A DNA stretch of 15,372 nucleotides from Planctomycetota bacterium (GCA_044225365.1 JBGAIQ010000086.1:1-15372); one strand, 5' to 3'; positions 4-14,913 are shown, counted from the stretch's first letter. Notes: a model not told the origin generated them from the letters alone. Numbers and translations: made by a program.

Positions 4-223
4 GGAGCCCGGCGGTCCGATATCGCCGGACCGCCAGGCTCTAGCCTGGCTCTTCTTCTTCCCTTCCGGGGCGGATCCCGGCGGTCCGGAAACGATGCCG
101 GGCTGGAGCCCGGCGGTCCGATATCGCCGGACCGCCAGGCTCTAGCCTGGCTCTTCTTCTTCCCTTCCGGGGCGGATCCCGGCGGTCCGGAAAAGATGCC
201 GGGCTGGAGCCCGGCGGTCCGAT
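4..223. repeat. 101-bp tandem repeat (2 full copies + partial third) built from inverted REP-like palindromes (BIME/REPIN-like)
   Basis: Units start at 4, 105 and 206; copies 1 and 2 differ only at 93(C)/194(A). Each unit holds GGACC-GCCAGGCT-CT-AGCCTGGC (28-50), a degenerate copy (~66-87) and the inverted GCCGGGCT-GG-AGCCCGGC-GGTCC (97-119). It may continue left of the window. Confidence 0.9.
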
Positions 224-1201
224 CTACCCGTCGGCCTTGCTGACGAAGCCGTCCTTGTTCTTGTCGAGGCGCTCGAAGATCGCGTCGGAACCCGGGAATT
301 CCTTGCGGCTCACCTTCTTGTCGGCGTTGAGGTCGAAGCGCGCGATGAAGTCGATCTCCATGTTCGCGAGTTGGAGGTCCTGCGCCGTCTTCAATGCCTT
401 GTCCAGTTCGGAGCGATTCGTGGCGCCGTCGCCGTCGGTGTCGTAGCGATCGAGCACCCCGCCGAGCGTGCCGCCGGCCTCGCCCTTCTCGATCTTGCCG
501 TCCTTGTTCTTGTCGAGCTTCTCCATCACGGTGTCGACGCTCTGATTCGCGATCGCGGCGAGGCCGTTGCCTTCGTGCCAGTCGATCTCGTCGGGCGAGA
601 GTCGTCCGTCCTTGTTCTTGTCGTGCGAGCGGAACTCCGCGTCGTCCGGCTTGAACTCGGTCCACTGCACGAGGCCGTCCTTGTTGCGATCGAAGCGATC
701 GAGGACGTGCTGCCCCTCGCCCGTGAATTCCTTGTTGAAGGCTCCGAAGTGCGCGATCTGATCGGCTTCATCGAGATCGATGGCGCCGTCCTCGTCGGCG
801 TCCGCCGCGGCGAAGAACAGCGCGCGGTGCTCGGACTCATCGATCTGGCCGTCGTGATTCTTGTCGTAATCGACGACGTCGAGGCGCTCGAGGCGATCCT
901 TGAGCGACGTGTTGTAGTCGCGTCCCTTCGCTAGTTCTCCGAGCACGAGATCCGGTCGCTTCTCGATCTCGGCGAGCGTCAGGAAGCCGTCCTTGTTGCC
1001 GTCGATCTCCTTGAAGATCGTCTTCTTCAGCTTCCACTCGTCGGGGCCGAGCTTGCCGTCCTTGTTGTAGTCGGTCGCCTTGAACAGCGTCTTGATCGGC
1101 GAGTCCTTCGCGGCTTCCTTGCCGTCCTCCCGCGCGAGGGCGCGCGACTCCAGGGCCGAGACGACGACGAGCAGGGCGATCGTGCTTCGGAGCGTGTTCA
1201 T
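224..1201 (-). CDS. Secreted multi-EF-hand calcium-binding protein (10 EF-hand loops)
   Basis: Signal peptide MNTLRSTIALLVVVSALESRALA with GAGG upstream of the ATG at 1201; an alternative ATG at 1231 overlaps the upstream stop (ATGA). Loops: DYNKDGKLGPDE, DGNKDGFLTLAE, DKNHDGQIDESE, DADEDGAIDLDE, DRNKDGLVQWTE, DKNKDGRLSPDE, DKNKDGKIEKGE, DTDGDGATNRSE, DLNADKKVSRKE, DKNKDGFVSKAD. Confidence 0.92.
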   Translation of the reverse strand: MNTLRSTIALLVVVSALESRALAREDGKEAAKDSPIKTLFKATDYNKDGKLGPDEWKLKKTIFKEIDGNKDGFLTLAEIEKRPDLVLGELAKGRDYNTSLKDRLERLDVVDYDKNHDGQIDESEHRALFFAAADADEDGAIDLDEADQIAHFGAFNKEFTGEGQHVLDRFDRNKDGLVQWTEFKPDDAEFRSHDKNKDGRLSPDEIDWHEGNGLAAIANQSVDTVMEKLDKNKDGKIEKGEAGGTLGGVLDRYDTDGDGATNRSELDKALKTAQDLQLANMEIDFIARFDLNADKKVSRKEFPGSDAIFERLDKNKDGFVSKADG

Positions 1202-1227
1202 GGCGAACCTCGGTTCCTCGTGCGGAC

Positions 1228-4200
1228 TCATTGGCCGTCCTGCTTCTTGTTCGGGTTCGAATTGGGCTTCTGCCTCGGATTCGGCGGTCCTCTGCCGTCC
1301 TCACCCGTCGTCGGCCCGGTCGGGATGGGCTTGCGATCGAGCGGGACCTTCAGGATACGGTCGACCTCGAGTCGCGTGAAGTAACGCGACCCGTCGTGCG
1401 AGATGTCCTTCTGCGGCGCGCCGGACTCATCGATCAGTCGATCGAGCGGGAACGTCTCGATGGCCGTCGCGACGGCTCCGCGCATTCCGGCGAACTGGGC
1501 GACGCCCATCGGTTCCTTGCTCTTGCTGACGTCGATGATCTCGAGCAGCGCTCCGCTCGTGACGACCGCGTAGGTCTGCAGGAACGGCGGATTGAAGAGA
1601 TGCATCAGCGAGACGTTGCGGCAGTCCGACGACAACCGCGCCGTTCCCACGATCTCGGGCTTGTAGGGGTTCGTGGCCTTCACGACCGCGAGCCGCCCCT
1701 GAGCCGCGTTCTGCGATGCGACTGTCACGTAGAAGTAGTCGTTCTCGACCGTCTTGATCGCGCCGTCCGGACTTCCGAGATCGACGTGCATTCCCGCGGC
1801 GACTCCCGTGACCGTCGTCTTGCCCACCTGATTGCGCCCCACCCTCCCGCCGAGCGCGCCGTATCCGAGCAGCGGGACGGGATGCGTGGGATCGGTGACG
1901 TCGGCGACCTTGAAACCATTCGCTTCGCACGCGAGCCCGACGAGGATCTGCATCTGCGAGCGCATCTCGAGCGCGCTTCCAGTGCTCGGACGCGACGGCA
2001 GCTGCAGGATCGCGATCTGTCGCGCGAGATTGCTGTCGGCTCCGACCTCGCCCTGCTCGAAGAAGCTGAGCTTCGACGCGACCTTCGGCTCGCGCGAGTT
2101 CGTGACGTCGACCACGACGAGCCCTTCTTCGTAATCGGCGACGAAGAGGTGCGGCCACTCGAGGACGAGATCGCGGGCGTCCTTCAGCTTGAGTTCGGAG
2201 AGCGGCTTCGGATCGAGCGGATCGGCGACGTCGTAGATCGCGAGCCCGCGCTTGCCCATCGCGACGTAGAATCGATCGGCGGCCTTCACGACGCTCTGCG
2301 CATCGTCGAGCTTCAGGAACTTCTTCTCCTTCGGGATGCCCGGGTTCGAGAGATCGACGACGTCGACGCCGCGACTCGCGCACGCGAGGTACGCGACCTT
2401 CGCGAATCCCTGCAGTGGATCGCATTCGAGCGCGATGTCGACGACTCCCAGTTCGGGAACGTTCGCGAGCGGAGTCGAGTCCGACAGCTTCTTCCTATCG
2501 ATGCCGAAGACGTCCATCCCGCGCGACGAGCCGACGAAGAAGAAGTTCCGCGCGAGGTGGAAGTTCGCGTTCGGCGACCCGAGACCGAGCGCAACGGGAT
2601 TGCGATGGCAGTCGACGCAGTCGCGCGCGACCTTGCGCGTCGTGTGCAGTTGATGGTGGATGAGCGTCATCCCGGACATGCCGGCGCCCGTCACGGGCAT
2701 CACCTGGTCGAGCACCGTCTTGCCCTGGGCGTCGGACACCGAGCCCATGCTCGAGAATCCGACGAGGTAGGGCGCGATCATCTTGTCGCTGTTGAACCCG
2801 AGGTAGAGACCCCGCATCGTCGCGAAGACCTTCTCCTGCGTGTTGACGCGCCCGATAGTCCGTTCGCCCGACATCATGTCGAGCTGCGTGAACTGCTCCT
2901 GACGTTCGAATTGGAAGCCGAAGAAGTTCGGGCTCCATGCGGCGTGACAGGTGTAGCACTCGAGTCGACCGTGCGCGCTCGTCATCGCTTCGGCCGCGCG
3001 GGCGTTGTAGTCCGGATGGCGCGGATTCACGATGTACGCCGCCTGCTTCACCTCGTGCTTCTCGCCCGTCACCTTCGAGACGAGGAAGTAGCTCGCGCCC
3101 TCCTTCACGAGGTTCTTGATCGGCGATCCGCGCGAAGTCTTCAGGTTGCTCGGCTGCTCGAACGTGCCATGACAGTCCGAGCACTCGATCTCGATCGCCT
3201 GCGGCATCTGCCCGTAGAGCGCGCCGTCGCCCATCACGTCCTTCACCGTGTGGCAATCGATGCAGGCCATCCCCTTTTCGTGATGGATGTCCGGTGGACA
3301 GAGATTCGGATCGTTGTTGTAGAAAGCGCGATTCTGCTGCGCCGACGTCGTTCCCTTCACTTCGGGGCCCGCCGGCTGACCGGGATAGAGCTGCGCGAGC
3401 CCTCGGAAGTTGAGTCCGACCGAGGCATCGCCGTAGTGGCAGTGCGTGCAGTTCTCCGTCGGGATCGCGGACGTGAGTCGATGGTGGCTCGGATGTCCCG
3501 GCTCGAACTTGTTCACCGTGGGATCGCCCGATTGCGAGAGTCCGTTGTCGGCGTAGACGACGTGACAGCCCGCGCATCCCTCGGATCGATAGTCCCCGTC
3601 GAAGCCGAGGCGACCCCGCAGCGCCTGCCCGGTCGAATAGAAATGACACCGCACGCAGTTCTTCGGCGCGAGATCGAGATAGTGCGTCGCGAACTGATCG
3701 CGCGGTTTCGTCGCGTCGAACGCGGGCAACGCGAGCAGGTGATCCGGAAGGACGGAGAACGACGGCTGGGACTTCTTGTCGGAACCCGCGGCTTCCGCGG
3801 TCCCCGCAACAGGATTCGCGCTCTTCGTATCGAACATCGCGAAACGCGAGCCGCGCGTCGGAAAGACGCCGCACTCGTACATGCCGTCGGACAGATGCCC
3901 CGCCGTCGTGCCGTGCAGTGATCGCGAGAAGTTCTCGCACAGACCGTGATGACATCCGCCGCAAGTCTGATCGAGGACGCGCAGATTGCTCGGGTTCTTG
4001 AATCGCAGGTAGTCGAGATCCGCCCAGTCGAGAGGCAGCACGCGCTCATCGTTCGGGAGCGGCTTCTTCGGTTTCACGTGCGCGAGTTCGCGCGTCTCCG
4101 CCTTACCGTTGCCACCGTGACAGGCAGTGCAGGTGAGCGACTCCCAGGGGTGCATCTCCTCGATGCCGAAGTGGCACGTGAGGCAGGTCTCCTCGTTCTT

Positions 4201-4308
4201 CACCGCGTTCGGACGCGGAGGCGTGGCGTCTTGGGCGATGCCACGCTGCGCGACCCCGAATCCGAGGAGCGCGACGAGGACGGTCGCGAATCGCGTGGAC
4301 TTCGACAT
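1228..4308 (-). CDS. Exported decaheme c-type cytochrome fused to a C-terminal LVIVD-repeat beta-propeller
   Basis: Sec-type signal peptide. Ten CxxCH motifs (CLTCH, CTACH, CGGCH, CVRCH, CAGCH, CTHCH, CIDCH, CSDCH, CYTCH, CVDCH) in aa 42-568, then LVIVD-like repeats (VDVVDLSNP, LAIYDVADP, LVVVDVTNS, FKVADVTDP, LAVVKATNP, LEIIDVSKS). Start overlaps the upstream stop (TGATG). Confidence 0.93.
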   Translation of the reverse strand: MSKSTRFATVLVALLGFGVAQRGIAQDATPPRPNAVKNEETCLTCHFGIEEMHPWESLTCTACHGGNGKAETRELAHVKPKKPLPNDERVLPLDWADLDYLRFKNPSNLRVLDQTCGGCHHGLCENFSRSLHGTTAGHLSDGMYECGVFPTRGSRFAMFDTKSANPVAGTAEAAGSDKKSQPSFSVLPDHLLALPAFDATKPRDQFATHYLDLAPKNCVRCHFYSTGQALRGRLGFDGDYRSEGCAGCHVVYADNGLSQSGDPTVNKFEPGHPSHHRLTSAIPTENCTHCHYGDASVGLNFRGLAQLYPGQPAGPEVKGTTSAQQNRAFYNNDPNLCPPDIHHEKGMACIDCHTVKDVMGDGALYGQMPQAIEIECSDCHGTFEQPSNLKTSRGSPIKNLVKEGASYFLVSKVTGEKHEVKQAAYIVNPRHPDYNARAAEAMTSAHGRLECYTCHAAWSPNFFGFQFERQEQFTQLDMMSGERTIGRVNTQEKVFATMRGLYLGFNSDKMIAPYLVGFSSMGSVSDAQGKTVLDQVMPVTGAGMSGMTLIHHQLHTTRKVARDCVDCHRNPVALGLGSPNANFHLARNFFFVGSSRGMDVFGIDRKKLSDSTPLANVPELGVVDIALECDPLQGFAKVAYLACASRGVDVVDLSNPGIPKEKKFLKLDDAQSVVKAADRFYVAMGKRGLAIYDVADPLDPKPLSELKLKDARDLVLEWPHLFVADYEEGLVVVDVTNSREPKVASKLSFFEQGEVGADSNLARQIAILQLPSRPSTGSALEMRSQMQILVGLACEANGFKVADVTDPTHPVPLLGYGALGGRVGRNQVGKTTVTGVAAGMHVDLGSPDGAIKTVENDYFYVTVASQNAAQGRLAVVKATNPYKPEIVGTARLSSDCRNVSLMHLFNPPFLQTYAVVTSGALLEIIDVSKSKEPMGVAQFAGMRGAVATAIETFPLDRLIDESGAPQKDISHDGSRYFTRLEVDRILKVPLDRKPIPTGPTTGEDGRGPPNPRQKPNSNPNKKQDGQ

Positions 4309-5504
4309 CAGGCGAACAGACTGCGGATCACCTTGCCGGACGCGTAGGGCGCGTCGACGCCGAGGATCTTCGCGACCGTCGGACAGACGTCGATCGTCGC
4401 GATCATCTCCTTCACCGTCTTGCCCGACTTGAACTCGGGGCCAGCGGCGATGAGTGCAACCTTCTGGAGATCCTCGGAGCCGTCGCCGTGATCGAGGCCG
4501 TTGCGTTCGTTCAGGTTCTTGTCACGCCCGAACTCGGGCAGGACGAGGATCGCCGTCGAATCCTTGAGCTCGGGATCCTGATCGATCGCCTTCATCATCG
4601 CGCCGACTTCGGCGTCGTTGCGACGGATGATCTCCTTGTACTGGTTGTAGCTCGCATGGGCCGCGTCGGCCTGCTGCAGTGCGACGCCGAGGAGCGTCGG
4701 CTTGAACACGCGGAGGATGTTCGTCGCGATGCGCAGCGCCTTCGCGTCGGCAGCGCCCGGACCCGTGAGATTCGTCGTCTGGCCCGTGATCTCCTTCAGG
4801 ATGAATTCCTCGACGCTTCGCTGCGAAGCGTGGTCGATGCCCTTGCTCGCCTTCACGCCGAGCGCGCCCCCATCGAGCATCGCCGCGAGTTCATCGACCT
4901 TCTTCGTCTCGCCCTCGGCCTGCACCTTGGGCCGACCGAAGGTGTCGAGGATGTCCTTGAACTCGGCGTTGAAGAGGCCCTCGGGCGCGATGAGGCTCGC
5001 TCCGTAGCGACCGCCGTACTTCGGATGCAGGCCGTACGAGAAGTTCACCTGCTGATCGCCGCCCGTCGTCGAGAGCCACACCGAGTTCGCGGAGACCTGA
5101 CCGTTCTTCCGCAGGTACTCGAAGATCGTGGGATTCGTCGAACGCGCGTTCTCGCGGATGCCGAACACTTCCGTGTTGCCGGTGAAGATCGAGAGCGCCG
5201 CGCCGTAGTGACCGACGTTCTCCGCCTTCACGTTCGGGAACACGCAGCCGCGCGTGCCGAGCTGCGTGAGGCTCGGGACGTTCTGCGGCATCCCGATCGT
5301 CTCCTTGCTTCGCACGCCGCCCGCGAACGCGATCACGACGACGTGCCGCGTCTTCGCGGGAGCCGAGGCGCCAAGCGCGCTGCGCCATGGGAAGAAGGCC
5401 GCCGCCGACGCGGCGATCGCGGAGGACTTCAGGAATTCGCGACGGAAGAGGGAGCTCGCCGCGGGGCGTGCGTCGTTCCGATCGAATCGCTCGTCGTTCG
5501 TCAT
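4308..5504 (-). CDS. Tat-exported DUF1501-like / alkaline phosphatase-sulfatase superfamily protein
   Basis: Twin-arginine signal FRREFLK plus hydrophobic stretch; motifs HVVVIAFAGGVR, DAAH, LPEFGRD..N...GLDHG and IDVCPTVAKILG; GGAGG RBS upstream of the ATG. Confidence 0.82.
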   Translation of the reverse strand: MTNDERFDRNDARPAASSLFRREFLKSSAIAASAAAFFPWRSALGASAPAKTRHVVVIAFAGGVRSKETIGMPQNVPSLTQLGTRGCVFPNVKAENVGHYGAALSIFTGNTEVFGIRENARSTNPTIFEYLRKNGQVSANSVWLSTTGGDQQVNFSYGLHPKYGGRYGASLIAPEGLFNAEFKDILDTFGRPKVQAEGETKKVDELAAMLDGGALGVKASKGIDHASQRSVEEFILKEITGQTTNLTGPGAADAKALRIATNILRVFKPTLLGVALQQADAAHASYNQYKEIIRRNDAEVGAMMKAIDQDPELKDSTAILVLPEFGRDKNLNERNGLDHGDGSEDLQKVALIAAGPEFKSGKTVKEMIATIDVCPTVAKILGVDAPYASGKVIRSLFA

Positions 5505-5559
5505 GACTCGTTGCCTCCAACACTCATCTTATCGTCGATTCGAGAGCCCGTTCATCACG

Positions 5560-8268
5560 TCAGTACATCTGGTATTCGGCGCTCGACAGGATCGCCTGCA
5601 GAACGAGTCGCGGCTCGGCCGAGGGATCCGCGAGTGCGCCCACGAATGCGGCCTCTTCCGAAGGAGTCGGGTCGCGGGCAAGGAACCGCTCGAAGACCTC
5701 GTTCACGAACGCCTTGGCATCGAGGCCCTGCTTGCTCGGAAGCGCGACCTGACCCGAATCGAGCATCACCTTGGACAGAACCGACCGCAAGGGACCGGAA
5801 TCGGCGAGCGCCTGTACGGCATTGCGGAAGTTTCGGAATTCCTCGAAGGTCGGCTTGCGGCCGAGCAGATCGACGAAGACGCCGCGGATCCACATGAAGT
5901 CGCTCTTGCGTCGGGGCGCCTTGGCGGCCGCGCGATAGGCATCGCTCTTCACCCACTCGAGGACGATCGCCGGATAGCTGGCTGGCTCGGCGCGGAAGCG
6001 ATCCGCCATGCTCGCGAGCTCCGTCGCGTTCGGCGGTGAACCGACGAGCCGTTCGTAGTGTCGCGCCATCAGCTTCGTCGCGTATGCGGGCTGCTTCAGC
6101 ACGATGCCCACGAAGTCGCTCTGGCTCGCGCCGGCCTCGTTGAAGACCGTGGCCTTGTAGCCGTCGTACATCTTCTTCCCGGTCTCGAGCAGACGCGTGT
6201 CGTCCTGCACCGTGATGCCGAGCAACTGCTCGAGCACGACCGTGACGAACGTGTCGTTGCCGGGATTGCGCGCGTTGAAGTACTGCGAGATCACGATCTC
6301 GCGCGTCGCGCCGCGCAGGTCCGTCTCCTTGTTGAGGAGGCGCGAGGGCAACGCCTCGAGCTGCGGCGTGCGGGGATGGAAGTTGTCGAGGAGGAGGAAG
6401 TAGTACAGCTCGAGCTGATATAGGTTCTCGTAGAACTCGAGCGAGTGGACGAGCTGCTCGGCGAGTCGATCGCGCGGGAGCGCTTCCGCCATGAGTCGCT
6501 CGATCGGCGTCGGCGTGCGGCCGAGGAGATCGAGATAGAGCGCGCGGATCTCGCGGGCCGCAAACGGCGTCGTCGCCGCGGCGGTCCTCGGCGCAACGAA
6601 GAACTGATCGATGCGCGGCGCGGTCTCGCTCGACGCGAACAACGTGATCGAGTGCTCGCCGGCGCGCAGGAAGCCGCTCGGCAGAGCATCCTGCGAGAGG
6701 TCGAACGAGCGCGCTTTGTCGGCGACCTTCAAGGTTCCGCTGGTGATCGCGAACGATCCGCGTCCGACGAGCGCGGGCGGCGCGAGTTTCCACGCGCCGC
6801 GCGGCGTCTCGATCACCTCGCCCGAATCCGACTGCAGGACGATGCGATCCTCGGTGACGTCGAGTCTTGATCGATAAGCCTGATCGGGCCGCAGTGGCAG
6901 CCGCTTCTCGGCGAGGAGCGTGCGCGCGCCGTTCTTCACGCGCTCGATCGCGTAGCGGTTCTTCCCGAACTCGATGCCCGCGACGACGGAGCCATCGGCG
7001 CCGCCGTCGAGTTCGACGAGCAACTCCTGCGTGGAGAGATCGCCGGAATTCGACTCCGGCCGCAGCCAGCGGGCCGTGAGGTCGATCGACGACGCCGCCT
7101 CGTCGAACTGCAGGCGCGCGGCGTCGAGCGATCCGCTCGCGATCGTGAGTTCCCCACCCTGGATCTCGACTTCGCCGAGCCGCGCATGAGCGAAGACCGA
7201 AGGCAGCGCGCCGTCACCCGACAGCGCTTGGATCTCGACCGTTTTGTATCCGCTGCCCGCCTCCGCAGAGAGCTCCGTCCTCTTTCCCGCGTCGAGGGAG
7301 AGCAGGAGCGCCGGACCGTCCGAAGAGGTCGCGTCGGGCTTCTTCTCGCCCGGCGTCGCGGCGATGCGCCCGAACACTCGGTAGCCGCCCCCCGAGGGCA
7401 ACGTGAAGCGGAGCTGCGCCTCGGCGGGCGTCTTCCCGCTCGCACTCTGGTCGACGGCGAGGGCGCGGTTGCCGCTCGCGGCTGCATCGCCCTTCACGTA
7501 GAAGCCGTGATCGATCGTCGCACCTTCCGCCTCGAGCGTCGCGAAGGGCAGGGAGTCGATCGTGACCGTCGTGGTCGAGGGGTCGCTCGCGCGCACTCCG
7601 TTGTCGACGACGAGCGACATCGTGTAGGCCCCGTCGCGATCGGCGCGAAAACTCGGGTTCGCCGTGTCGGCATGCTTCAGGATCGGCGTGCTGCCGTCGG
7701 GCTTCGATTCGACGATCCAACGATACTGGAGGGAGCCGCCGCGTCGCTCGCGGCTGTGGCTGCCATCGAGGGCGATCTCCTCGCCGCGTTTCCCGGAGCG
7801 ATCACTACCCGCGTCCGCGATGGGCGCGACGTTCGTCAGCTCCACGCCCGCGATCCAATCCGCGAAGATCTTGTACTCCTCGCTCGTCTTCCCGAAATCG
7901 TATTGCGCGCCGGTATGCGGCAGGCCGCCGTCCTTGACCCTCAGGGGCTTCAGAAGCAATCGGCTCTCGAGCGGTTTTCCGAACTCGACGAATTGGAGCG
8001 CGGTCGCGAGGTTCTTCGCCGTCGCCTCCTGCGAGTAGCGCCCTTGGAAGTCGGGCCGCTCGAGGAGGAGCCGCCCCGATCCCGGCGCGCCGTGGCAGCC
8101 GCTCGTTCCGCAGTTCGCGGCGAAGATCGGCTGGATGCGCTCCTCGAAGTAGACCGGATCCGGATCGCTGCGATCGGACGTCGCCATGGCGATCGCGGCG
8201 CTTCGTCCCTTGCAGACGATTGCGACGACGGAAAGGATCGCGAGGACGAGGGTGCGGGACGGGTGCAT
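5560..8268 (-). CDS. Exported multidomain protein: planctomycete-type cytochrome c domain (CX4CH), PKD/Ig domain, CBM-like beta-sandwich, DUF1549/DUF1553-like helical C-terminus
   Basis: Signal peptide; YFEERIQPIFAANCGTSGCHG...ESRLLLKP...PHTG...DWI; APIADAGSD...LDGSHS...YRW...GAYTMSLVVDNG (PKD-like); LEAE...ASG...YRVFGR...GEHSITL...IDQF (CBM-like); three repeats LYLDLLGRTPT / VFVDLLGRKPT / FERFLARDPT and terminal ILSSAEYQ. Confidence 0.85.
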   Translation of the reverse strand: MHPSRTLVLAILSVVAIVCKGRSAAIAMATSDRSDPDPVYFEERIQPIFAANCGTSGCHGAPGSGRLLLERPDFQGRYSQEATAKNLATALQFVEFGKPLESRLLLKPLRVKDGGLPHTGAQYDFGKTSEEYKIFADWIAGVELTNVAPIADAGSDRSGKRGEEIALDGSHSRERRGGSLQYRWIVESKPDGSTPILKHADTANPSFRADRDGAYTMSLVVDNGVRASDPSTTTVTIDSLPFATLEAEGATIDHGFYVKGDAAASGNRALAVDQSASGKTPAEAQLRFTLPSGGGYRVFGRIAATPGEKKPDATSSDGPALLLSLDAGKRTELSAEAGSGYKTVEIQALSGDGALPSVFAHARLGEVEIQGGELTIASGSLDAARLQFDEAASSIDLTARWLRPESNSGDLSTQELLVELDGGADGSVVAGIEFGKNRYAIERVKNGARTLLAEKRLPLRPDQAYRSRLDVTEDRIVLQSDSGEVIETPRGAWKLAPPALVGRGSFAITSGTLKVADKARSFDLSQDALPSGFLRAGEHSITLFASSETAPRIDQFFVAPRTAAATTPFAAREIRALYLDLLGRTPTPIERLMAEALPRDRLAEQLVHSLEFYENLYQLELYYFLLLDNFHPRTPQLEALPSRLLNKETDLRGATREIVISQYFNARNPGNDTFVTVVLEQLLGITVQDDTRLLETGKKMYDGYKATVFNEAGASQSDFVGIVLKQPAYATKLMARHYERLVGSPPNATELASMADRFRAEPASYPAIVLEWVKSDAYRAAAKAPRRKSDFMWIRGVFVDLLGRKPTFEEFRNFRNAVQALADSGPLRSVLSKVMLDSGQVALPSKQGLDAKAFVNEVFERFLARDPTPSEEAAFVGALADPSAEPRLVLQAILSSAEYQMY

Positions 8269-8398
8269 GGACGAGTACTACCCCGAGACGAACGACCGGG
8301 TGACAAGCTCCAACGGAATCCACTCTTCGTGACACGATCGGGCGGAGGACCCGCGCGTGAAACGGATTCCGCGCGATCGCTGGAATCGAACGAACGCG

Positions 8399-8794
8399 TC
8401 AGCCGAACAGCCCGAACGCCTTGAAACCGGCGAAGGCGGCCGCAATGCCGAGGACCACACTCAGGACAACGTAGCAGAAGAAGGCGCCGAACCGCCCTTC
8501 CCGGACCAGTTCCAAGGCGTCGATGCTGAAGGTGGAGAAGGTCGTGAATCCGCCACAAACGCCGACCCCGATGAAGGTCGCGAAGACCTTGGCCGACTCT
8601 TCCTTGACGACGAGGGAACCCATGAGCCCGGCGAGCCCGCCCAGTACGAGGCAGCCGACGACGTTCACGATCAGGATCGCGAGCGGAAAGCCGCCGGTCT
8701 GCGTCTTCGGCAGCGCGCTCGCCGCGGCGAATCTCAGTAGCGACCCCAAGCCGCCGCCGAGGAAGACGAGGAACGCATCACGCGGTGGGACCAT
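8399..8794 (-). CDS. crcB: Fluoride efflux channel CrcB/FluC
   Basis: 131 aa, 4 hydrophobic segments, VFLGGGLGSLLRF, FPLAILIVNVVGC and GVCGGFTTFSTF signatures. The start at 8794 is chosen because the longer ORF to 8980 runs through REP repeats. Confidence 0.95.
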   Translation of the reverse strand: MVPPRDAFLVFLGGGLGSLLRFAAASALPKTQTGGFPLAILIVNVVGCLVLGGLAGLMGSLVVKEESAKVFATFIGVGVCGGFTTFSTFSIDALELVREGRFGAFFCYVVLSVVLGIAAAFAGFKAFGLFG

Positions 8795-8801
8795 GGACAG
8801 C

Positions 8802-8829
8802 AGCGTAGGGCCTGGGTTGCCCGGTGCAA
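8802..8829 (-). promoter_or_regulatory. Candidate sigma70-type promoter of crcB, possibly leaderless
   Basis: Minus strand TTGCAC-16 nt-TACGCT, then 7 nt to the ATG; no SD motif. Confidence 0.4.
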
Positions 8830-8834
8830 TCGAA

Positions 8835-8974
8835 TGGGAGCGCCGGCTTGAAGCGCAGTCGTCCACCCAAGTGAAATCGCATTGGGAGCGCCGGGCTCCA
8901 GCCCGGCTCTTCCCTTGCGACACGACACGCCGCTCAGCATCCATCCGGATGCCGGGCTGGAGCCCAGCGCTCCC
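8835..8974. repeat. Inverted pair of REP-like palindromes (REPIN-like) plus a truncated third copy
   Basis: GGGAGC-GCCGGGCT-CC-AGCCCGGC (8884-8907) and inverted GCCGGGCTGGAGCCCAGCGCTCCC (8951-8974); TGGGAGCGCCGG also at 8835-8846. Same stem and flanks (TCTTCCCTT, GAT) as the repeat at 4-223. Confidence 0.85.
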
Positions 8975-9062
8975 GCTCATCGCGGCATACCGCGCGGCGA
9001 CGATTCCCGTCCCTCTCGCGTCGAGCGTCGGCGGTTGATCGCAGCGGATCGAAGATCGTTCG

Positions 9063-10298
<1,236 letters not shown>

Positions 10299-10487
10299 CT
10301 TGGGTCTCGGCAAGTTCGAGGGACGAAAGAGAACCCGCACTCTAGTTACCGCGCGCGATGGATGGAAGGCGGTTGATTCCGGAGGGCGGGAAGAGGACAA
10401 GCGGATTCGGAGAGTACGGGGGGATCGGACATCGGTCTCGGACGTCGTACGTCGTTCGTCGTACCGCGGACGCCCGCCGCATCGTCC

Positions 10488-10516
10488 TTCAACGAGTGGC
10501 CGTGAGCGCGTAGAAT
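10488..10516 (+). promoter_or_regulatory. Candidate sigma70 promoter for the FG-GAP gene
   Basis: TTCAAC (10488-10493), 17-nt spacer, TAGAAT (10511-10516); GAGGAG RBS at 10539-10544. Confidence 0.5.
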
Positions 10517-10551
10517 GGGCGTCCTACCCCCCGGGAATGAGGAGCGAAGCG

Positions 10552-12393
10552 ATGTCGTCGATGATTCGGTATTTCTTGATCGCCTGCTGCGTCGCGCCGC
10601 TGGCGGAGGCGCAGTTCGACGTTCAGTGGCTCACGTTGACGCCGGGGTCGGGCAAGCTCGTGAATCCCGATCTCGTGACGAACGCGGACCTCGTGGCGAA
10701 CACGGACGAAAAGGACTTCGCGATCGGCGACGTAGATCGCGATGGCTGGCCGGACCTCGCGGTCGGGAAGAAGGTACCGAATTCCTTTCCGGGTCCGCGA
10801 GAAGGTCGCCTGCTCCTGAATCGGAAGGGTGTGCTCGTCGATTTCACGGCGCAGCTCGCCAGCTCGTCCCTCACCGCGGGCGATCACGGCTTCAAGGAAC
10901 CACTCGACTGCCGTGACGTCGAGTTCGGCGATCTCGACGGCGACGGTTGGCTCGACCTCGTCAGCGTGCAGACCGATCTACTGAACAACACGACGGCCGC
11001 GGGAAAGCGGATCACCCACCCCCGCATCTACATGAATCTCGGAGAGGACGCCGCCGGCAACTGGCTCGGACTTCGTCATGAGGACGCGCGAATCCCGCAA
11101 CTCTTGACGATTCCCGGCAACGTGAACGGTGTCGTTCGCTTCAACGACTGCACGCTGGGCGACATCGATGGCGACGGCGATCTCGATCTCTACTGCGTGG
11201 ATTCGGACACGGACGAGACCCAACACAACGAACCGCCCTCTCTCGACCTCAACGACCGACTACTCGTCAACGACGGCCACGGGTTCTTCAGCGATGCAAC
11301 GGCGACCCACTTCGCAGCGACCGGGATGTGGTCCTCGCAATTCGGAACCGAGTGCGCATTTCACGATATGAACGGCGATGGAAAGCTCGACATCGTCAAG
11401 ATCTCGACCCTGACCGATTCCCCGAATCGCACCGAGGTCTCGTACAACGACCTCCTCCCCGCGGTCGCGCCGAACTTCCCCGGTGGCTTCGATTCGATCG
11501 CGACCATCGATTCTCAAACGGGTCAGGCGTACTCGATGGCCAACGCCGACCTCAACAACGACGGTCGCATCGACCAAATGGTCGGAAGCGAGGCCTTCGA
11601 TCATTACGAATTCAACAAGAGCAACGATGCCAATGGCGCGGCGGTCTGGTCTTCCCCGCTCAACTTCCAATGGCTCACGGGATCGGGGGATGACGGCTTC
11701 GTCGGCCAGATGTACGCCGTCGATTACGACCTCGACGGCTGGAACGACGCGATCATCACGGACGTCGATATCGATCTCCCAGGATGCACCCGTCGCACGA
11801 AGATCTACCACAACCAAGGCGGCACGCCCGGCGCCACGAACATCGTCCTGCGCGAGGAGGCACAGATGTCCGGTGCGTCCGGCTGGAAGGGCGCGGTCGG
11901 CTGGCTGATCGCGAACTCGAAGGGCGGCTTCGATGTCGCCAACATCGACATCGATCACGACGGAGATCTCGATATCGTGTTCGGGCGGTGCGTCGGCACC
12001 GACGTCTGGATGAATCAGACCAATCCCGTCGTCTGTCAGGCGAGCGTCGTGCCGGCCTCACTCGGGACCGCGTCGCTCACGGTCTGCGGACAACCGCTCT
12101 GGTCGAATCTCTTGGCCTCACTGAAGATCGCGGGCGGCCCGCCGAACACGGCGGCGCTGCTCATCGCAGGTCACGCGCCGACGACCCTCCCCACATTTGG
12201 CGGCCTCGTGATGTACCCGATCACCGTCGGCGCACTCTTGCAACTCGACGCCACGGGAACAGTCACGCTCTCCGTCGCCGGCGGCCTGGGAACGGCGGCA
12301 GGATCGGAGATCTTCCTCCAGGCTCTCCTCGGCCCGCCCGGCGGTCGCCCCAACGACATCACGAACATCGTGCGCGTCGAGATGCACGACTGA
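10552..12393 (+). CDS. Secreted FG-GAP/VCBS-repeat (integrin-alpha-like) 7-bladed beta-propeller with a C-terminal beta-rich domain
   Basis: ATG 10552 lies 7 nt after GAGGAG; signal peptide ending AEA-Q. Seven Ca-binding repeats: GDVDRDGWPDL, GDLDGDGWLDL, GDIDGDGDLDL, HDMNGDGKLDI, ADLNNDGRIDQ, VDYDLDGWNDA, IDIDHDGDLDI. Confidence 0.92.
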   Translation: MSSMIRYFLIACCVAPLAEAQFDVQWLTLTPGSGKLVNPDLVTNADLVANTDEKDFAIGDVDRDGWPDLAVGKKVPNSFPGPREGRLLLNRKGVLVDFTAQLASSSLTAGDHGFKEPLDCRDVEFGDLDGDGWLDLVSVQTDLLNNTTAAGKRITHPRIYMNLGEDAAGNWLGLRHEDARIPQLLTIPGNVNGVVRFNDCTLGDIDGDGDLDLYCVDSDTDETQHNEPPSLDLNDRLLVNDGHGFFSDATATHFAATGMWSSQFGTECAFHDMNGDGKLDIVKISTLTDSPNRTEVSYNDLLPAVAPNFPGGFDSIATIDSQTGQAYSMANADLNNDGRIDQMVGSEAFDHYEFNKSNDANGAAVWSSPLNFQWLTGSGDDGFVGQMYAVDYDLDGWNDAIITDVDIDLPGCTRRTKIYHNQGGTPGATNIVLREEAQMSGASGWKGAVGWLIANSKGGFDVANIDIDHDGDLDIVFGRCVGTDVWMNQTNPVVCQASVVPASLGTASLTVCGQPLWSNLLASLKIAGGPPNTAALLIAGHAPTTLPTFGGLVMYPITVGALLQLDATGTVTLSVAGGLGTAAGSEIFLQALLGPPGGRPNDITNIVRVEMHD

Positions 12394-12868
12394 CTCGCGT
12401 CGCGCACACCCGTCAACTCCTACGTAGGCCGAGCAGCGCGACGAAGCGATTCGGGTGGGCTCGAGATCGTCACGAAGCGGTCCTCGATTTCGGTGCCTGC
12501 GTACAATCTAGGTCGCTTCCGCCTCCCGCTCTTCAGGATCGAAAAGCGGAGAAGTATGCGGGCGGGCCTCGCGGCCTTGGCCGCATCTCCCGCGCTCGGG
12601 ATCGCGACGGCGAACCCCTGAATCATCGAGAACAGTCGCGTCTTGTGCGCGAGGCTGCTCCATTTCCTTCCGCGGGTCATGTCGAGGGATCGCCCATCGC
12701 GGCTTGATGTGGCTGTGTTTCACGAACCGTGAATCCCCGGACACTCGCTCCTCAATGGTTCTAAACGCTGTTGAGGTGCGTTGTAAATGTTTTTCGACTC
12801 GTTCTTTGCGACGTCGAACGAGCAAACGATACCAGAAACGCTAGCGCTCGGGTCGAAGATGTACTGGG

Positions 12869-12918
12869 TGCGAGCCCTTGCGAGCCCGTGCGATCTGGTG
12901 CGAGTTCGAACGAGTTGG
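12869..12918. repeat. Five degenerate 10-bp tandem repeats
   Basis: TGCGAGCCCT/TGCGAGCCCG/TGCGATCTGG/TGCGAGTTCG/AACGAGTTGG. Confidence 0.55.
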
Positions 12919-13019
12919 GAGTCGATCGGGTGAGGCCAGGAATTGGACGGATTGCGGCCGCCTGCCACGAAATCTGCCGTGACGTCATCGCGCGGCGGAT
13001 CGGCTTGGCGCGGCGAGCG

Positions 13020-13044
13020 TGGTAGACTGGTCCACACCGGTTCA
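13020..13044 (+). promoter_or_regulatory. Extended -10 promoter with overlapping imperfect palindrome (candidate TA operator)
   Basis: TG-G-TAGACT at 13020-13028; TAGACTGGT-CCAC-ACCGGTTCA imperfect inverted repeat (6/9 pairs); GGAG RBS at 13070-13073. Confidence 0.45.
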
Positions 13045-13079
13045 ATTCCAAGTAATCAGACGCCGTCCCGGAGTGAGTC

Positions 13080-13349
13080 ATGACCCGAAGTTCCGCTACC
13101 GCGAACACGGTCGGCGCGCACGACGCCAAGACGAACCTCAGCCAACTCCTCGATCGAGTGGAGCGCGGAGAGGCGATCGTGATCGTTCGGCACGGCGAGC
13201 CCGTTGCCCGCCTCGTTCCGTTCCAAGAACCTATCGACAAACGCAAAGTCGAGCACGCGATCGAGCGCCTCATGGCGCTCCAGAAGCGACAGACCCTCGG
13301 TGAGGGGCTCTCCGTCGAGGATCTCATCAACGAAGGGCGCGAAGCGTGA
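13080..13349 (+). CDS. Type II TA antitoxin, Phd/YefM (prevent-host-death) family
   Basis: TVGAHDAKTNLSQLLDRVERGEAIVIVRHGEPVARLVP is the Phd DNA-binding signature; stop overlaps the toxin start (GTGA). Confidence 0.93.
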   Translation: MTRSSATANTVGAHDAKTNLSQLLDRVERGEAIVIVRHGEPVARLVPFQEPIDKRKVEHAIERLMALQKRQTLGEGLSVEDLINEGREA

Positions 13350-13779
13350 GCTTCGTTCTCGATGCGTCGGTCTCGCTGACTTGGTGCTTCGCGGATGAGT
13401 CGACCGACCATTCGAACGCGGTCCTGCGATCGCTTCGCGACGTGCGGGCGATCGTGCCGGCGCTGTGGATCTTCGAGGTCGAGAACGCCCTCGTGAGCGG
13501 AGTTCGTCGCAAGCGAATCTCGAAGAAGGCGATCTCCGAATTCCGCGATGTGCTCGCCGATCTGCCGATCGACGTTCAAGCGCCGCCCAATCCATGGGGC
13601 CGTACCGCCGAACTTCTCCACGACATCGCAGTCGAGCAACAGATCACCGCGTACGACGCCTCGTACCTGACGATTGCCGTCGAACTGGGAATCCGCGACG
13701 CTCGACGGATCCGAGCTGCTGGGGCGACTGGAACACGCCGCTGGAGAAGTTCGGAGTCCGATTCTACGCTCCGAAGTGA
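13346..13779 (+). pseudogene. vapC: VapC/PIN-domain toxin, frameshifted near the C-terminus
   Basis: FVLDAS, VPALWIFEVENAL, ITAYDASYL..A.ELGI in the first frame. The expected ATLD motif lies in the +1 frame from 13695, and a plausible tail EKFGVRFYAPK* in the third frame (13744-13779). Confidence 0.75.
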
Positions 13780-13850
13780 GCCGCGCGGGATTGAATACCA
13801 ACTTCGAGCAGGATCGTCCGTGGAAACCCGCTGCTCCGATCTCAAGGGCC

Positions 13851-14913
13851 TCTCTCCAGTTCCTCGCCCCTTCGCCGGCATCGTGAACCGCCACCCGCAG
13901 CGCGTGATCGACTTCCCTGGTCGAGAAGAACAAGATCCTGAAGGCCGCGCTCGGCGACAAACGCGTCTGGTTCGCGGACGGCCGGCGCCGGAGACTCGCG
14001 ATCCTCGGCAAGGCGCTCGGCCGCGACTTGCTGGATCGCTTCGCGAGCATCGTCTCGACCGAAACGATCCTCCGCTGGTACCGACGGCGCAGGTCGCTTT
14101 GAAGTGGACCTTCAACAACGGCGCAGAGAATCGCCGCTGACGGCCGCGCGTGATGGCAGCAATCGAGATCCTCGTCGTAAAGATGGCGCGCGAGAACGCG
14201 ACGTGGGGGCCGGGAAGCGCATCCAGGGCGCGCTGAAAGCGGTCGGCCACACGGTCGCGCGCTCGACGATCTCGGCAATCCTCGAGCGCAATGGAATCGC
14301 GCCTTCTCCCGATCGCAAGACGTCATGGGCGACGTTCCTGAAAGCGCACTTCGACGGCCTCGCCGTGGCCGACTTCCTGAACGTCGAGGTCTGGACGCTC
14401 CGCGGCCTGCGCACCTTCGTTGTTCTGTTCGCGATTCGATTGAACACGCGCAAGGTCGAGATCCTCGGCGTCACCGACAAGGTCGATCCCGAGTTCGCGA
14501 CGAACGCCGCGAGGAATCTCGTCGATCCGGACGCGAATTCGATGAACGGCGTGGCGCATTTACTGATCGGCCGAGACTCTAAGTTCACGTCGGCGCTCAA
14601 GACGTTTCTGGAGAACGCCGGTGTGACGATCAAGCTCACGCCTCCAAGGTCGCCGAATTGCAATGCTATCTGCGAGCGTTGGGTCGGGACCCTACGGCGC
14701 GAATTGCTCAACTGGATGATCTTCTTCGGCGAGGCGAGCCTCCGTGCTGCCGTCAACGCTTTTGTCGCTCATTATCACGAAGAGCGATCACATCAATCGT
14801 TCGACAATTCGATCCTCGCCCCTCGCATCGATGTCGGGCGCGCTGTCGGTGCCGTGAAACGGCGCGACCGGCGGGGCGGCATCCTTCGCTATTACCATCG
14901 CGCCGCGGCGTAA
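13851..14913 (+). pseudogene. Integrase-core (rve, DDE) IS transposase pseudogene
   Basis: Joined frames read LQFL|FAGIVNRH..VIDF|LVEKNKILK..LG....FAD..RRRLA..GK.LGR..L..FASIVS.ETILRWYRR|..KW..*RPRV..I..LVVKMARENATWG|KRIQGAL..GH.VARSTI..IL...ADF..VE...PPRSPNCNA.CERWV...HYH.ER.HQ...GGILRYYHRAAA. Frameshifts at ~13869, 13916, ~14089, ~14212; in-frame TGA at 14138-14140. Confidence 0.88.

Follow-up and report, generated by a model that had tools for sequence, protein, structure and literature searches.

We analyzed a 15,372-base stretch of DNA (JBGAIQ010000086.1, hereafter the window) that is a whole contig of a 6.5-Mb Planctomycetota metagenome-assembled genome (MAG), and we describe in it a cluster of four genes, here called A to D, in which a DUF1501 protein is joined to a decaheme cytochrome. 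Open reading frame (ORF) calling and translation place all four genes on the minus strand in the same orientation. Gene A (5560..8268) encodes an exported multidomain partner protein of 902 amino acids, assigned by ORF and Pfam; gene B (4308..5504) encodes a divergent DUF1501 protein of 398 amino acids, exported by the twin-arginine translocation (Tat) pathway and assigned by Pfam and hhalign; gene C (1228..4308) encodes a decaheme cytochrome fused to a beta-propeller, 1026 amino acids long and assigned by motifs, profiles, and AlphaFold2; and gene D (224..1231) encodes an exported protein of 335 amino acids with 10 EF-hand loops, assigned by Pfam and a loop count. The junctions are tight. A 55-nt spacer (5505-5559) separates A from B and holds, 9 nt before the ATG of B, a ribosome-binding-like GGAGG that was read directly from the sequence (5514..5518, minus strand); B and C overlap by one base (TGATG at 4308), and C and D by four (ATGA at 1228-1231). 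An initial annotation, made by a model from the DNA alone, had described these four co-oriented genes and their junctions in the same way.

The cluster recurs in many other genomes. A one-genome-per-species scan returned 257 relatives, from which 80 loci were kept. B lies at most 600 nt upstream of C in 65 of the 72 loci with enough upstream DNA (farther away in 4). Of 65 loci, 47 have the conserved core of A no more than 400 nt from B (11 have it farther off), and C is followed by an EF-hand region in 63 of 65, 57 of these found by tblastn and 6 by the presence of at least four EF loops; in the remaining 2 it was not found. Among genomes of the taxonomic order to which the window belongs, 38 of 41 gave a match. 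We also examined an evenly drawn phylum sample of 301 genomes, in which C was detected in 53 genomes (E≤1e-50) and B in 52 (E≤1e-40). Both were present in 46, and two match tables place them adjacent on one contig in 43 of those 46. These counts and those from the 80 loci are not independent, since both were drawn from the same species collection. At strong scores, B was found without C in a single genome of the 301 (G322, 76% complete). The objection from missing synteny that the initial annotation had raised against its own proposal fails, because the four genes are syntenic in many genomes. On these genome comparisons, it is highly probable that the linked four-part module is real in a subset of Planctomycetota. 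It is concentrated in some families (for example, 8 of 8 in f3, 4 of 5 in f1, and 5 of 7 in f9) and was not found in several large ones (0 of 15 in f8, 0 of 15 in f17, and 0 of 10 in f26).

Some genomes of the sample hold only one of the two central genes, and most of these discrepancies involve weak or incomplete matches. Four genomes with C only (G163, G215, G246, and G276) have just a paralogue of the heme domain, matching residues ~46-594 at E values of about 1e-65 and 34-36% identity within open frames of 1173-1382 amino acids; the heme domain in these genomes may be joined to something other than an LVIVD propeller. In one C-only genome, C stands at a contig end. Five genomes with B only (G112, G216, G262, G271, and G319, from families f16 and f29) encode a B-like protein of 28-34% identity (E values of 1e-42 to 1e-56), which may represent a sister subfamily with other partners. 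In some loci the A-B or the B-C junction is interrupted by genes for regulators or for FG-GAP, CAP, or unknown proteins; locus L025, for example, has an FG-GAP protein at 8196-9812 between B and C. Beyond the four genes, a reduced all-against-all comparison together with Pfam found no flanking family in more than 14 of the 80 loci. The flanking families seen were sigma-70 factors, CrcB, lipoyl synthase, E1 dehydrogenase, and CarboxypepD_reg proteins, and no outer-membrane porin, quinol dehydrogenase, or other electron-transfer gene is conserved beside the cluster in these loci.

The product of gene B is a remote relative of the canonical DUF1501 proteins. Against the DUF1501 model (PF07394) it scores 28.6 bits, borderline over the cut-off of 27, and 21.8 bits in a six-frame search of the genome; two of 12 B relatives reach the cut-off. 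The same genome (G000) encodes 18 full-length canonical DUF1501 genes scoring 320-535 bits, and B is thus a remote branch of the family. When 30 B relatives were compared with 12 canonical DUF1501 proteins of the same genome, hhalign returned a probability of 60% and an E value of 8.6e-5 over 276 columns, with B residues H99, D280/H283, E324-R327, and D338/H339 aligned to the canonical invariant His before the 'TG' turn, WDxH, EFGR, and GRDH. All 30 sequences share N96, G98, H99, and H283, while D280, D338, and H339 are close to invariant. The nearest Pfam and solved relatives of B are sulfatases and nucleotide pyrophosphatases, the best solved one being an S1_8A sulfatase (E 6.6e-8), and the invariant H99 falls on the catalytic position occupied by the formylglycine Cys of sulfatases. 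Together, the profile and alignment data strongly support B as a divergent DUF1501 member of the alkaline-phosphatase/sulfatase superfamily that has kept the His/Asp signature of its family, in line with the divergent partner/DUF1501 pair that the initial annotation had proposed. The Tat signal of B reads SLFRREFLK, with the twin-arginine motif RREFLK at residues 21-26 (5427..5444, minus strand); its RR is invariant in 30 of 30 aligned sequences, and the Pfam TAT_signal model matches 5 of 12 B relatives at E≤0.01. A, C, and D have Sec-like N-termini as judged only by eye, in keeping with the export signals initially annotated on all four products. In the 12 canonical DUF1501 loci that we examined (L091-L102), the ORF ahead of each DUF1501 gene has a PSD1-type tail at its end.

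The partner protein A contains a conserved core at residues 560-902 (5563..6591, minus strand), defined by an alignment of 28 sequences and by tblastn. This is the only part of A retained in most relatives, whose tblastn matches cover ~560-902 only. The core carries three DLLGRxPTxxE-type repeats and an RNPGxDTFVTVVxEQ motif. Its best Pfam match is DUF1800 (PF08811), at 25.5 bits just below the cut-off of 26.1, which one of 12 short A relatives reaches (27.8 bits). Against PSCyt2/DUF1549 (PF07583) A scores 22.1 bits, below the cut-off of 29.8; four of the 12 short relatives and two of three FHA-type relatives do reach it, and the core is therefore a distant relative of the PSCyt2 repeat family. 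More generally, A relatives match PSCyt2, DUF4214, or DUF1800 near the respective cut-offs. However, the DUF1553-like label given to A in the initial annotation is unsupported, because A scores 16.1 bits against a PSD1/DUF1553 (PF07587) cut-off of 28.5 that none of the 12 short relatives reaches, and because hhalign, run with the A core and the C-terminal regions of 12 canonical partners from the same genome, yielded a probability of 34% over 82 columns. A distant DUF1549/DUF1800-type helical repeat would be a fair description of the core.

Most A proteins are ~340-390 amino acids long and consist of a signal-like N-terminus and the core, without a Cys/His motif. The window's A is longer. Its N-terminal domain is weakly cytochrome-c-like (Cytochrome_CBB3, E 0.023) and contains the motif CGTSGCH at residues 53-59 (8092..8112, minus strand), the single C-x4-CH that a regular expression finds in a protein with zero CxxCH. 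This motif is kept in the window's A and five long relatives, in a layout like that of planctomycete cytochrome domains; a window-type N-terminus bearing it occurs in 5 of 55 related loci uncut by a contig end and is missing in the other 50, and CxxCH occurs in none of the A relatives. The N-terminal domain is followed by a PKD domain at residues 146-236 (7561..7833, minus strand; PKD_4, PF18911, 37.4 bits against a cut-off of 27, E 2.7e-9) and by a middle region at residues ~241-559 (6592..7548, minus strand) without a Pfam match even at E≤10. The first atlas match of this middle region scored 0.94 with 154 shared features, and the region clusters with 3keto-disac_hyd/CBM-type families, a lead and only a lead toward a lectin-like beta-sandwich. 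The C-x4-CH, PKD, and putative beta-sandwich parts of the window's A are a lineage-specific add-on that lies outside the core mechanism.

An FHA-like N-terminal pattern was observed in the A proteins of seven loci (L028, L031, L051, L056, L059, L065, and L074), and Pfam FHA matched all three of the FHA-type proteins tested (E 7e-17). In the six aligned loci, all but L051, a hydrophobic stretch follows the FHA-like part and precedes the core. An A protein of this type would link a periplasmic A-B unit to cytoplasmic phospho-threonine signaling.

Complex prediction, which the initial annotation had suggested for pairs of these proteins, supports binding between the A core and B. Using the core of A and residues 48-398 of B, each with a custom alignment, we made three runs and three controls. 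The interaction prediction score from aligned errors (ipSAE) was 0.75, 0.78, and 0.73 for the A core with B, whereas the best of the three controls reached 0.00. The mark set for this score is reached by 116 of 157 solved complexes and by 2 of 215 mismatched pairs, counts that serve only as a rough guide with custom alignments. Contact agreement among the A-B runs was at least 86%, with a partner predicted local distance difference test (pLDDT) of at least 82. The predicted interface joins core residues 225-342 (A 784-901, the last third of the core) to B residues 168-236, and both stretches contain invariant residues. In the modeled arrangement, the helical core of A would clamp a conserved insertion of B.

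Gene C encodes exactly 10 CxxCH motifs, as do 77 of 77 relatives examined, and 10 further non-motif His are invariant among 63 aligned sequences. The initial annotation had counted 11 heme motifs in the cluster; the 10 on C are canonical and stand, whereas the 11th is the atypical C-x4-CH of A. By CxxCH count and the ExtM equivalog model NF040943, the cytochrome domain of C covers residues ~38-580 (2569..4197, minus strand) and is ExtM-like, although its 168.9 bits (E 1.4e-49) miss the cut-off of 800. It also resembles free-standing multiheme cytochromes of 550-790 amino acids from Thermodesulfobacteriota. Ten extra His for ten hemes are the pattern expected of a bis-His electron wire, and they argue, without proof, against an open heme site of the NrfA, OTR, or HAO kind. 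The only notable match of the C profile to solved structures is a weak one to NrfA (6v0a, E 0.0038, 33 residues). A model of the heme domain has no Foldseek match at E≤0.001, and its best VIA-align Z of 3.0 is a weak match to OTR (1sp3_A, root-mean-square deviation (rmsd) 4.9, 225 aligned). We do not take these poor matches, made with a model of pLDDT 67.1, as a sign of a new fold.

In the whole-protein AlphaFold2 model of C (pLDDT 79.6, predicted template modeling score 0.84), structural matches were to the propeller only. This seven-bladed LVIVD/YVTN-like domain at residues ~584-955 (1444..2559, minus strand) is identified by PF08309, with 39.2 bits passing the cut-off of 20.2, and by the model, where its pLDDT is mostly >90. 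VIA-align superimposes it on the YVTN propeller 1l0q_A with Z 32.3 and rmsd 2.1 over 281 aligned residues, and on lactonase-like propellers with Z 30-32; the selenium-binding protein 2ece is one among many structural neighbors. The propeller has no conserved Cys or His cluster suggesting a metal site. Among 8000 candidates scored we found 884 homologues of C at E≤0.001, almost all of them unnamed proteins from Planctomycetota MAGs, and many of these are proteins of 1280-1330 amino acids that combine EF-hand, LVIVD, and cytochrome families.

The EF-hands of such fused homologues correspond to gene D in the window. D contains 10 distinct EF-hand loops (11 regular-expression matches, two of them overlapping) and matches EF-hand_7 (PF13499) at 115.6 bits against a cut-off of 30 (E 1.3e-33), which agrees with the 10 EF-hands initially annotated. 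It has an in-frame Met at residue 11, just ahead of a hydrophobic stretch. In 22 of 65 loci the reading frame of C continues without a stop into the EF-hand region; the other 43 have a stop between the two. Since the two are one frame in 22 loci, C and D appear to be the split form of one protein, and the comparison strongly supports a single functional protein that has been split in the lineage of the window. D also matches the lanmodulin model NF053806 (47.7 bits, E 1.5e-12, cut-off 135) and the XopAW model (73.9 bits, cut-off 120). Because both scores fall below their cut-offs, these matches reflect generic EF-hand similarity, and an anammox link, lanthanide binding, and a type III effector function were dropped as candidates.

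A pattern scan found no promoter-like sites, and terminator-like sites were no commoner than in shuffled sequence; a GC hairpin with a T-rich run directly after the stop of D (198..215, minus strand) is terminator-like by pattern and gives weak evidence. A 101-nt unit is repeated in tandem across positions 4-230 (copies at 4-104 and 105-205 with 99% identity, and a third from 206). It consists of GC-rich palindromes that extend from the stop codon of D to the contig end and include the 198..215 hairpin, and it may be an element like the repetitive extragenic palindromes that broke the assembly. No Rfam family reached its gathering score in the whole window, the fluoride riboswitch included, and none of the 16 datasets listed as containing the stretch is an RNA dataset, all 16 being DNA metagenomes. 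The habitats in which this DNA occurs include ones of bioreactor type.

Two genes lie upstream of A on its strand: that of a CrcB-type fluoride channel (8399-8980), directly adjacent in the window as in locus L011, and that of an acyl-CoA dehydrogenase. The window also encodes an FG-GAP repeat protein (10135-12393, plus strand), 2 kb away from the cluster. ORF 14104-14913 (plus strand), close to the opposite end of the contig, contains an rve_3 integrase core domain (E 4e-13) and is probably a transposase remnant. The 521-amino-acid product of ORF 12761-14326 (minus strand) matches no Pfam family. Three long antisense ORFs on the plus strand are probably high-G+C artefacts: 7186-8424 over A and 9138-10376 over the acyl-CoA dehydrogenase gene, both without a Pfam match, and 1231-3921 (896 amino acids) over gene C.

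We tentatively favor, with confidence somewhat short of even, the reading that A, B, C, and D constitute an extracytoplasmic redox enzyme system. The A-B heterodimer would be the catalytic unit, a metal-dependent enzyme whose folding and loading take place in the cytoplasm. Between A-B and the respiratory chain or an outside partner, electrons would be shuttled by the decaheme domain of C, and the propeller of C together with a Ca-loaded EF-hand domain D may serve as a docking or structural platform. Several observations weigh against this proposal. Linkage is not absolute: A was not found in 7 of 65 loci and B in 3 of 72, and of the 46 genomes with both B and C, 3 have them on separate contigs. 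The all-bis-His assignment comes from residue counts, because the heme domain models poorly (residues 30-585 alone, pLDDT 67.1). In the alignment of 28 sequences, neither Cys nor His is conserved in the core of A, which could therefore not itself relay electrons. In B, the first metal-binding Asp of the superfamily is replaced ('FAGGVR'), so that B may have an unusual metal site or none. Moreover, we know of no enzyme of the alkaline-phosphatase superfamily that does redox chemistry, and the fold of B argues for hydrolysis or group transfer. All of the evidence is computational, and every organism involved is an uncultured MAG.

Different divisions of labor among the four proteins can be proposed. 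In one, C-D does the work: as a decaheme protein, secreted or periplasmic, it would exchange electrons with an insoluble or metal substrate such as Fe/Mn minerals or metalloids. Attachment to this substrate or to the cell surface would fall to the propeller and the Ca-binding EF-hand domain, and A-B would be an accessory hydrolase or maturation factor without a redox role. The likeness of the cytochrome domain to multiheme cytochromes of Thermodesulfobacteriota and to ExtM, which belongs to a Geobacter cluster linked to metals and metalloids in the part of that report drawn on here (PMC5877670), favors such a role, as do the occurrence of 2ece among the many propeller neighbors and the description of LVIVD repeats as cell-surface associated (bioRxiv 10.1101/2022.05.06.490989). 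However, no porin, quinol dehydrogenase, or electron-transfer gene is conserved nearby, flanking families being limited to at most 14 of 80 loci, and the propeller lacks a conserved Cys/His cluster that would suggest a metal site. B and C are also near-obligatory neighbors, in 65 of 72 loci and in 43 of 46 genomes, a tighter link than a mere accessory would be expected to show. We regard this arrangement as a live but unlikely rival.

We give a similarly low probability to A-B as an ordinary hydrolytic nutrient scavenger (a phosphatase, sulfatase, or phosphodiesterase-like enzyme) that shares only regulation or location with C-D and passes no electrons. This explanation is a live one because no redox enzyme of the alkaline-phosphatase superfamily is known to us, and it agrees with the sulfatases and nucleotide pyrophosphatases that are the nearest solved and Pfam relatives of B. 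It would also fit the DUF1800-DUF1501 pairs that exist in Proteobacteria without cytochromes, as far as these are covered in the portion of PMC5122149 used here. However, where the nucleophile (Cys, Ser, or Thr) would stand, B has an invariant His, and it lacks the first metal-binding Asp. The one-base overlap of B and C, and the near absence of the B subfamily without C (G322 alone at strong scores among the 301 genomes), also speak against a hydrolase that merely shares regulation with the cytochrome.

The initial annotation had proposed a relay in which electrons pass from B through a single heme on A to the decaheme C. Retention of the C-x4-CH motif in the window and five long forms, and the weak cytochrome-c match (E 0.023), are consistent with a heme at this site. 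However, the motif is not a canonical CxxCH, and of the 50 uncut loci (out of 55) that lack it, 7 carry instead a cytoplasmic FHA domain and a membrane span. With the motif in 5 of 55 loci and CxxCH in no A relative, a monoheme relay is not a conserved mechanism; the motif is at best a lineage-specific extra, and we consider a relay through it very improbable. Finally, long spurious ORFs are common on both strands of the window (G+C 61-69%, and 64% for the contig), yet the notion that the four genes are chance neighbors or mis-called ORFs deserves next to no credence and is already refuted, since it is the minus-strand frames of A to D that match known families and that have conserved relatives in the 80 loci, in the same order in dozens of genomes.

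DUF1501 proteins paired with a partner carrying a cytochrome motif are among the largest unexplained paralogue families in Planctomycetota and Verrucomicrobiota, with at least 18 canonical copies in the genome studied here. We raise as a speculative idea, with a minor but real chance of being right, that DUF1501 proteins are redox metalloenzymes of a new, extracytoplasmic class with an alkaline-phosphatase fold, in which His takes the place of the usual nucleophile and the DUF1549/DUF1800-type helical partner is always needed as a second subunit. The cluster would be the clearest case, a DUF1501 enzyme hard-wired to a ten-heme conduit with a Ca-dependent propeller platform, and solving it would account for the hundreds of DUF1501/PSCyt paralogue pairs in Planctomycetota and Verrucomicrobiota, unexplained since 2004. 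The earlier electron-transport proposal for DUF1501 rested on single heme-type motifs only. Because a divergent pair is here joined, almost always, to a true decaheme cytochrome, the cluster offers the strongest genomic argument so far for a DUF1501 redox role. The predicted A-B heterodimer also provides a testable subunit model for the whole DUF1501 family, and the cluster a compact target of three or four genes.

Parts of the cluster can be compared with several described systems. The initial annotation did not recognize its composition, and our search of the open literature, with subscription journals and the supplements of PMC3542564 outside its scope, likewise matched no described system with the same four parts. 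The heme-plus-propeller architecture of C is like that of cytochrome cd1 nitrite reductase and hydrazine synthase, in which a c-type heme domain is joined to a beta-propeller. Both enzymes appear among the propeller matches (1dy7 and 5c2v_B), as generic matches ranked below lactonase-like and YVTN propellers, and none of the d1-heme or active-site residues of heme-plus-propeller enzymes was identified in C. A paper on hydrazine synthase homologues (PMC12758564) deals with other proteins and has no bearing on the cluster. D is like lanmodulin in being exported and built of EF-hand loops. The loops of lanmodulin have Pro at position 2. Unlike lanmodulin, D has 10 loops rather than 4, its loops lack this Pro, and its score falls below the LanM cut-off.

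ExtM (GSU2935) is described, in the part of PMC5877670 considered here, as a 12-heme cytochrome of the conserved, cytochrome-rich Geobacter extHIJKLMNOPQS cluster, which is a proposed electron carrier and is linked to Fe(III), selenite, and tellurite reduction. C resembles ExtM over the heme domain, in three stretches (E 1.4e-49). It differs in having 10 hemes rather than the 12 given there, in its fusion to a propeller, and in scoring 168.9 bits against the cut-off of 800; the porin, Rieske, and cytochrome b neighbors described for the ext cluster are all missing here. The DUF1800-DUF1501 pairs of Proteobacteria and other bacteria, found for example beside chitin synthase genes (PMC5122149), share with A-B the order of a helical partner followed by DUF1501, and DUF1800 is the best Pfam match of A. 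However, A misses the DUF1800 cut-off, and the pairs known from the portion of that paper covered here have no cytochrome or EF-hand neighbors.

The closest parallel lies in the modules of PVC bacteria in which DUF1501 genes are paired with PSCyt1/PSCyt2/PSD1 proteins; in the sections drawn on here, Kamneva et al. (2012, PMC3542564) suggest a part in electron transport for them without settling what they do. The same sections give a four-gene form that encodes DUF1501, a PPC-like protein, PSCyt1-Big_2-PSCyt2-PSD1, and PSCyt1-WD40. Like these modules, the cluster has a Tat-signal DUF1501 protein with an upstream exported partner, the partner has a cytochrome-type motif, an Ig-like domain, and DLLGR-type helical repeats, and a further gene joins heme motifs to a beta-propeller. 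However, B is far from canonical DUF1501 and the A core falls below the PSD1 and PSCyt2 cut-offs. The propeller protein has ten ExtM-type hemes and LVIVD repeats, compared with one PSCyt1 motif and WD40 in the published form, and in place of that form's full set the cluster has no PPC protein and adds an EF-hand domain or protein. As far as these modules are described in that account, the layout is analogous yet every part is different, and this is not the same cluster. We read the cluster as a variant, not previously described, of the known but uncharacterized DUF1501/partner (PSCyt) module.

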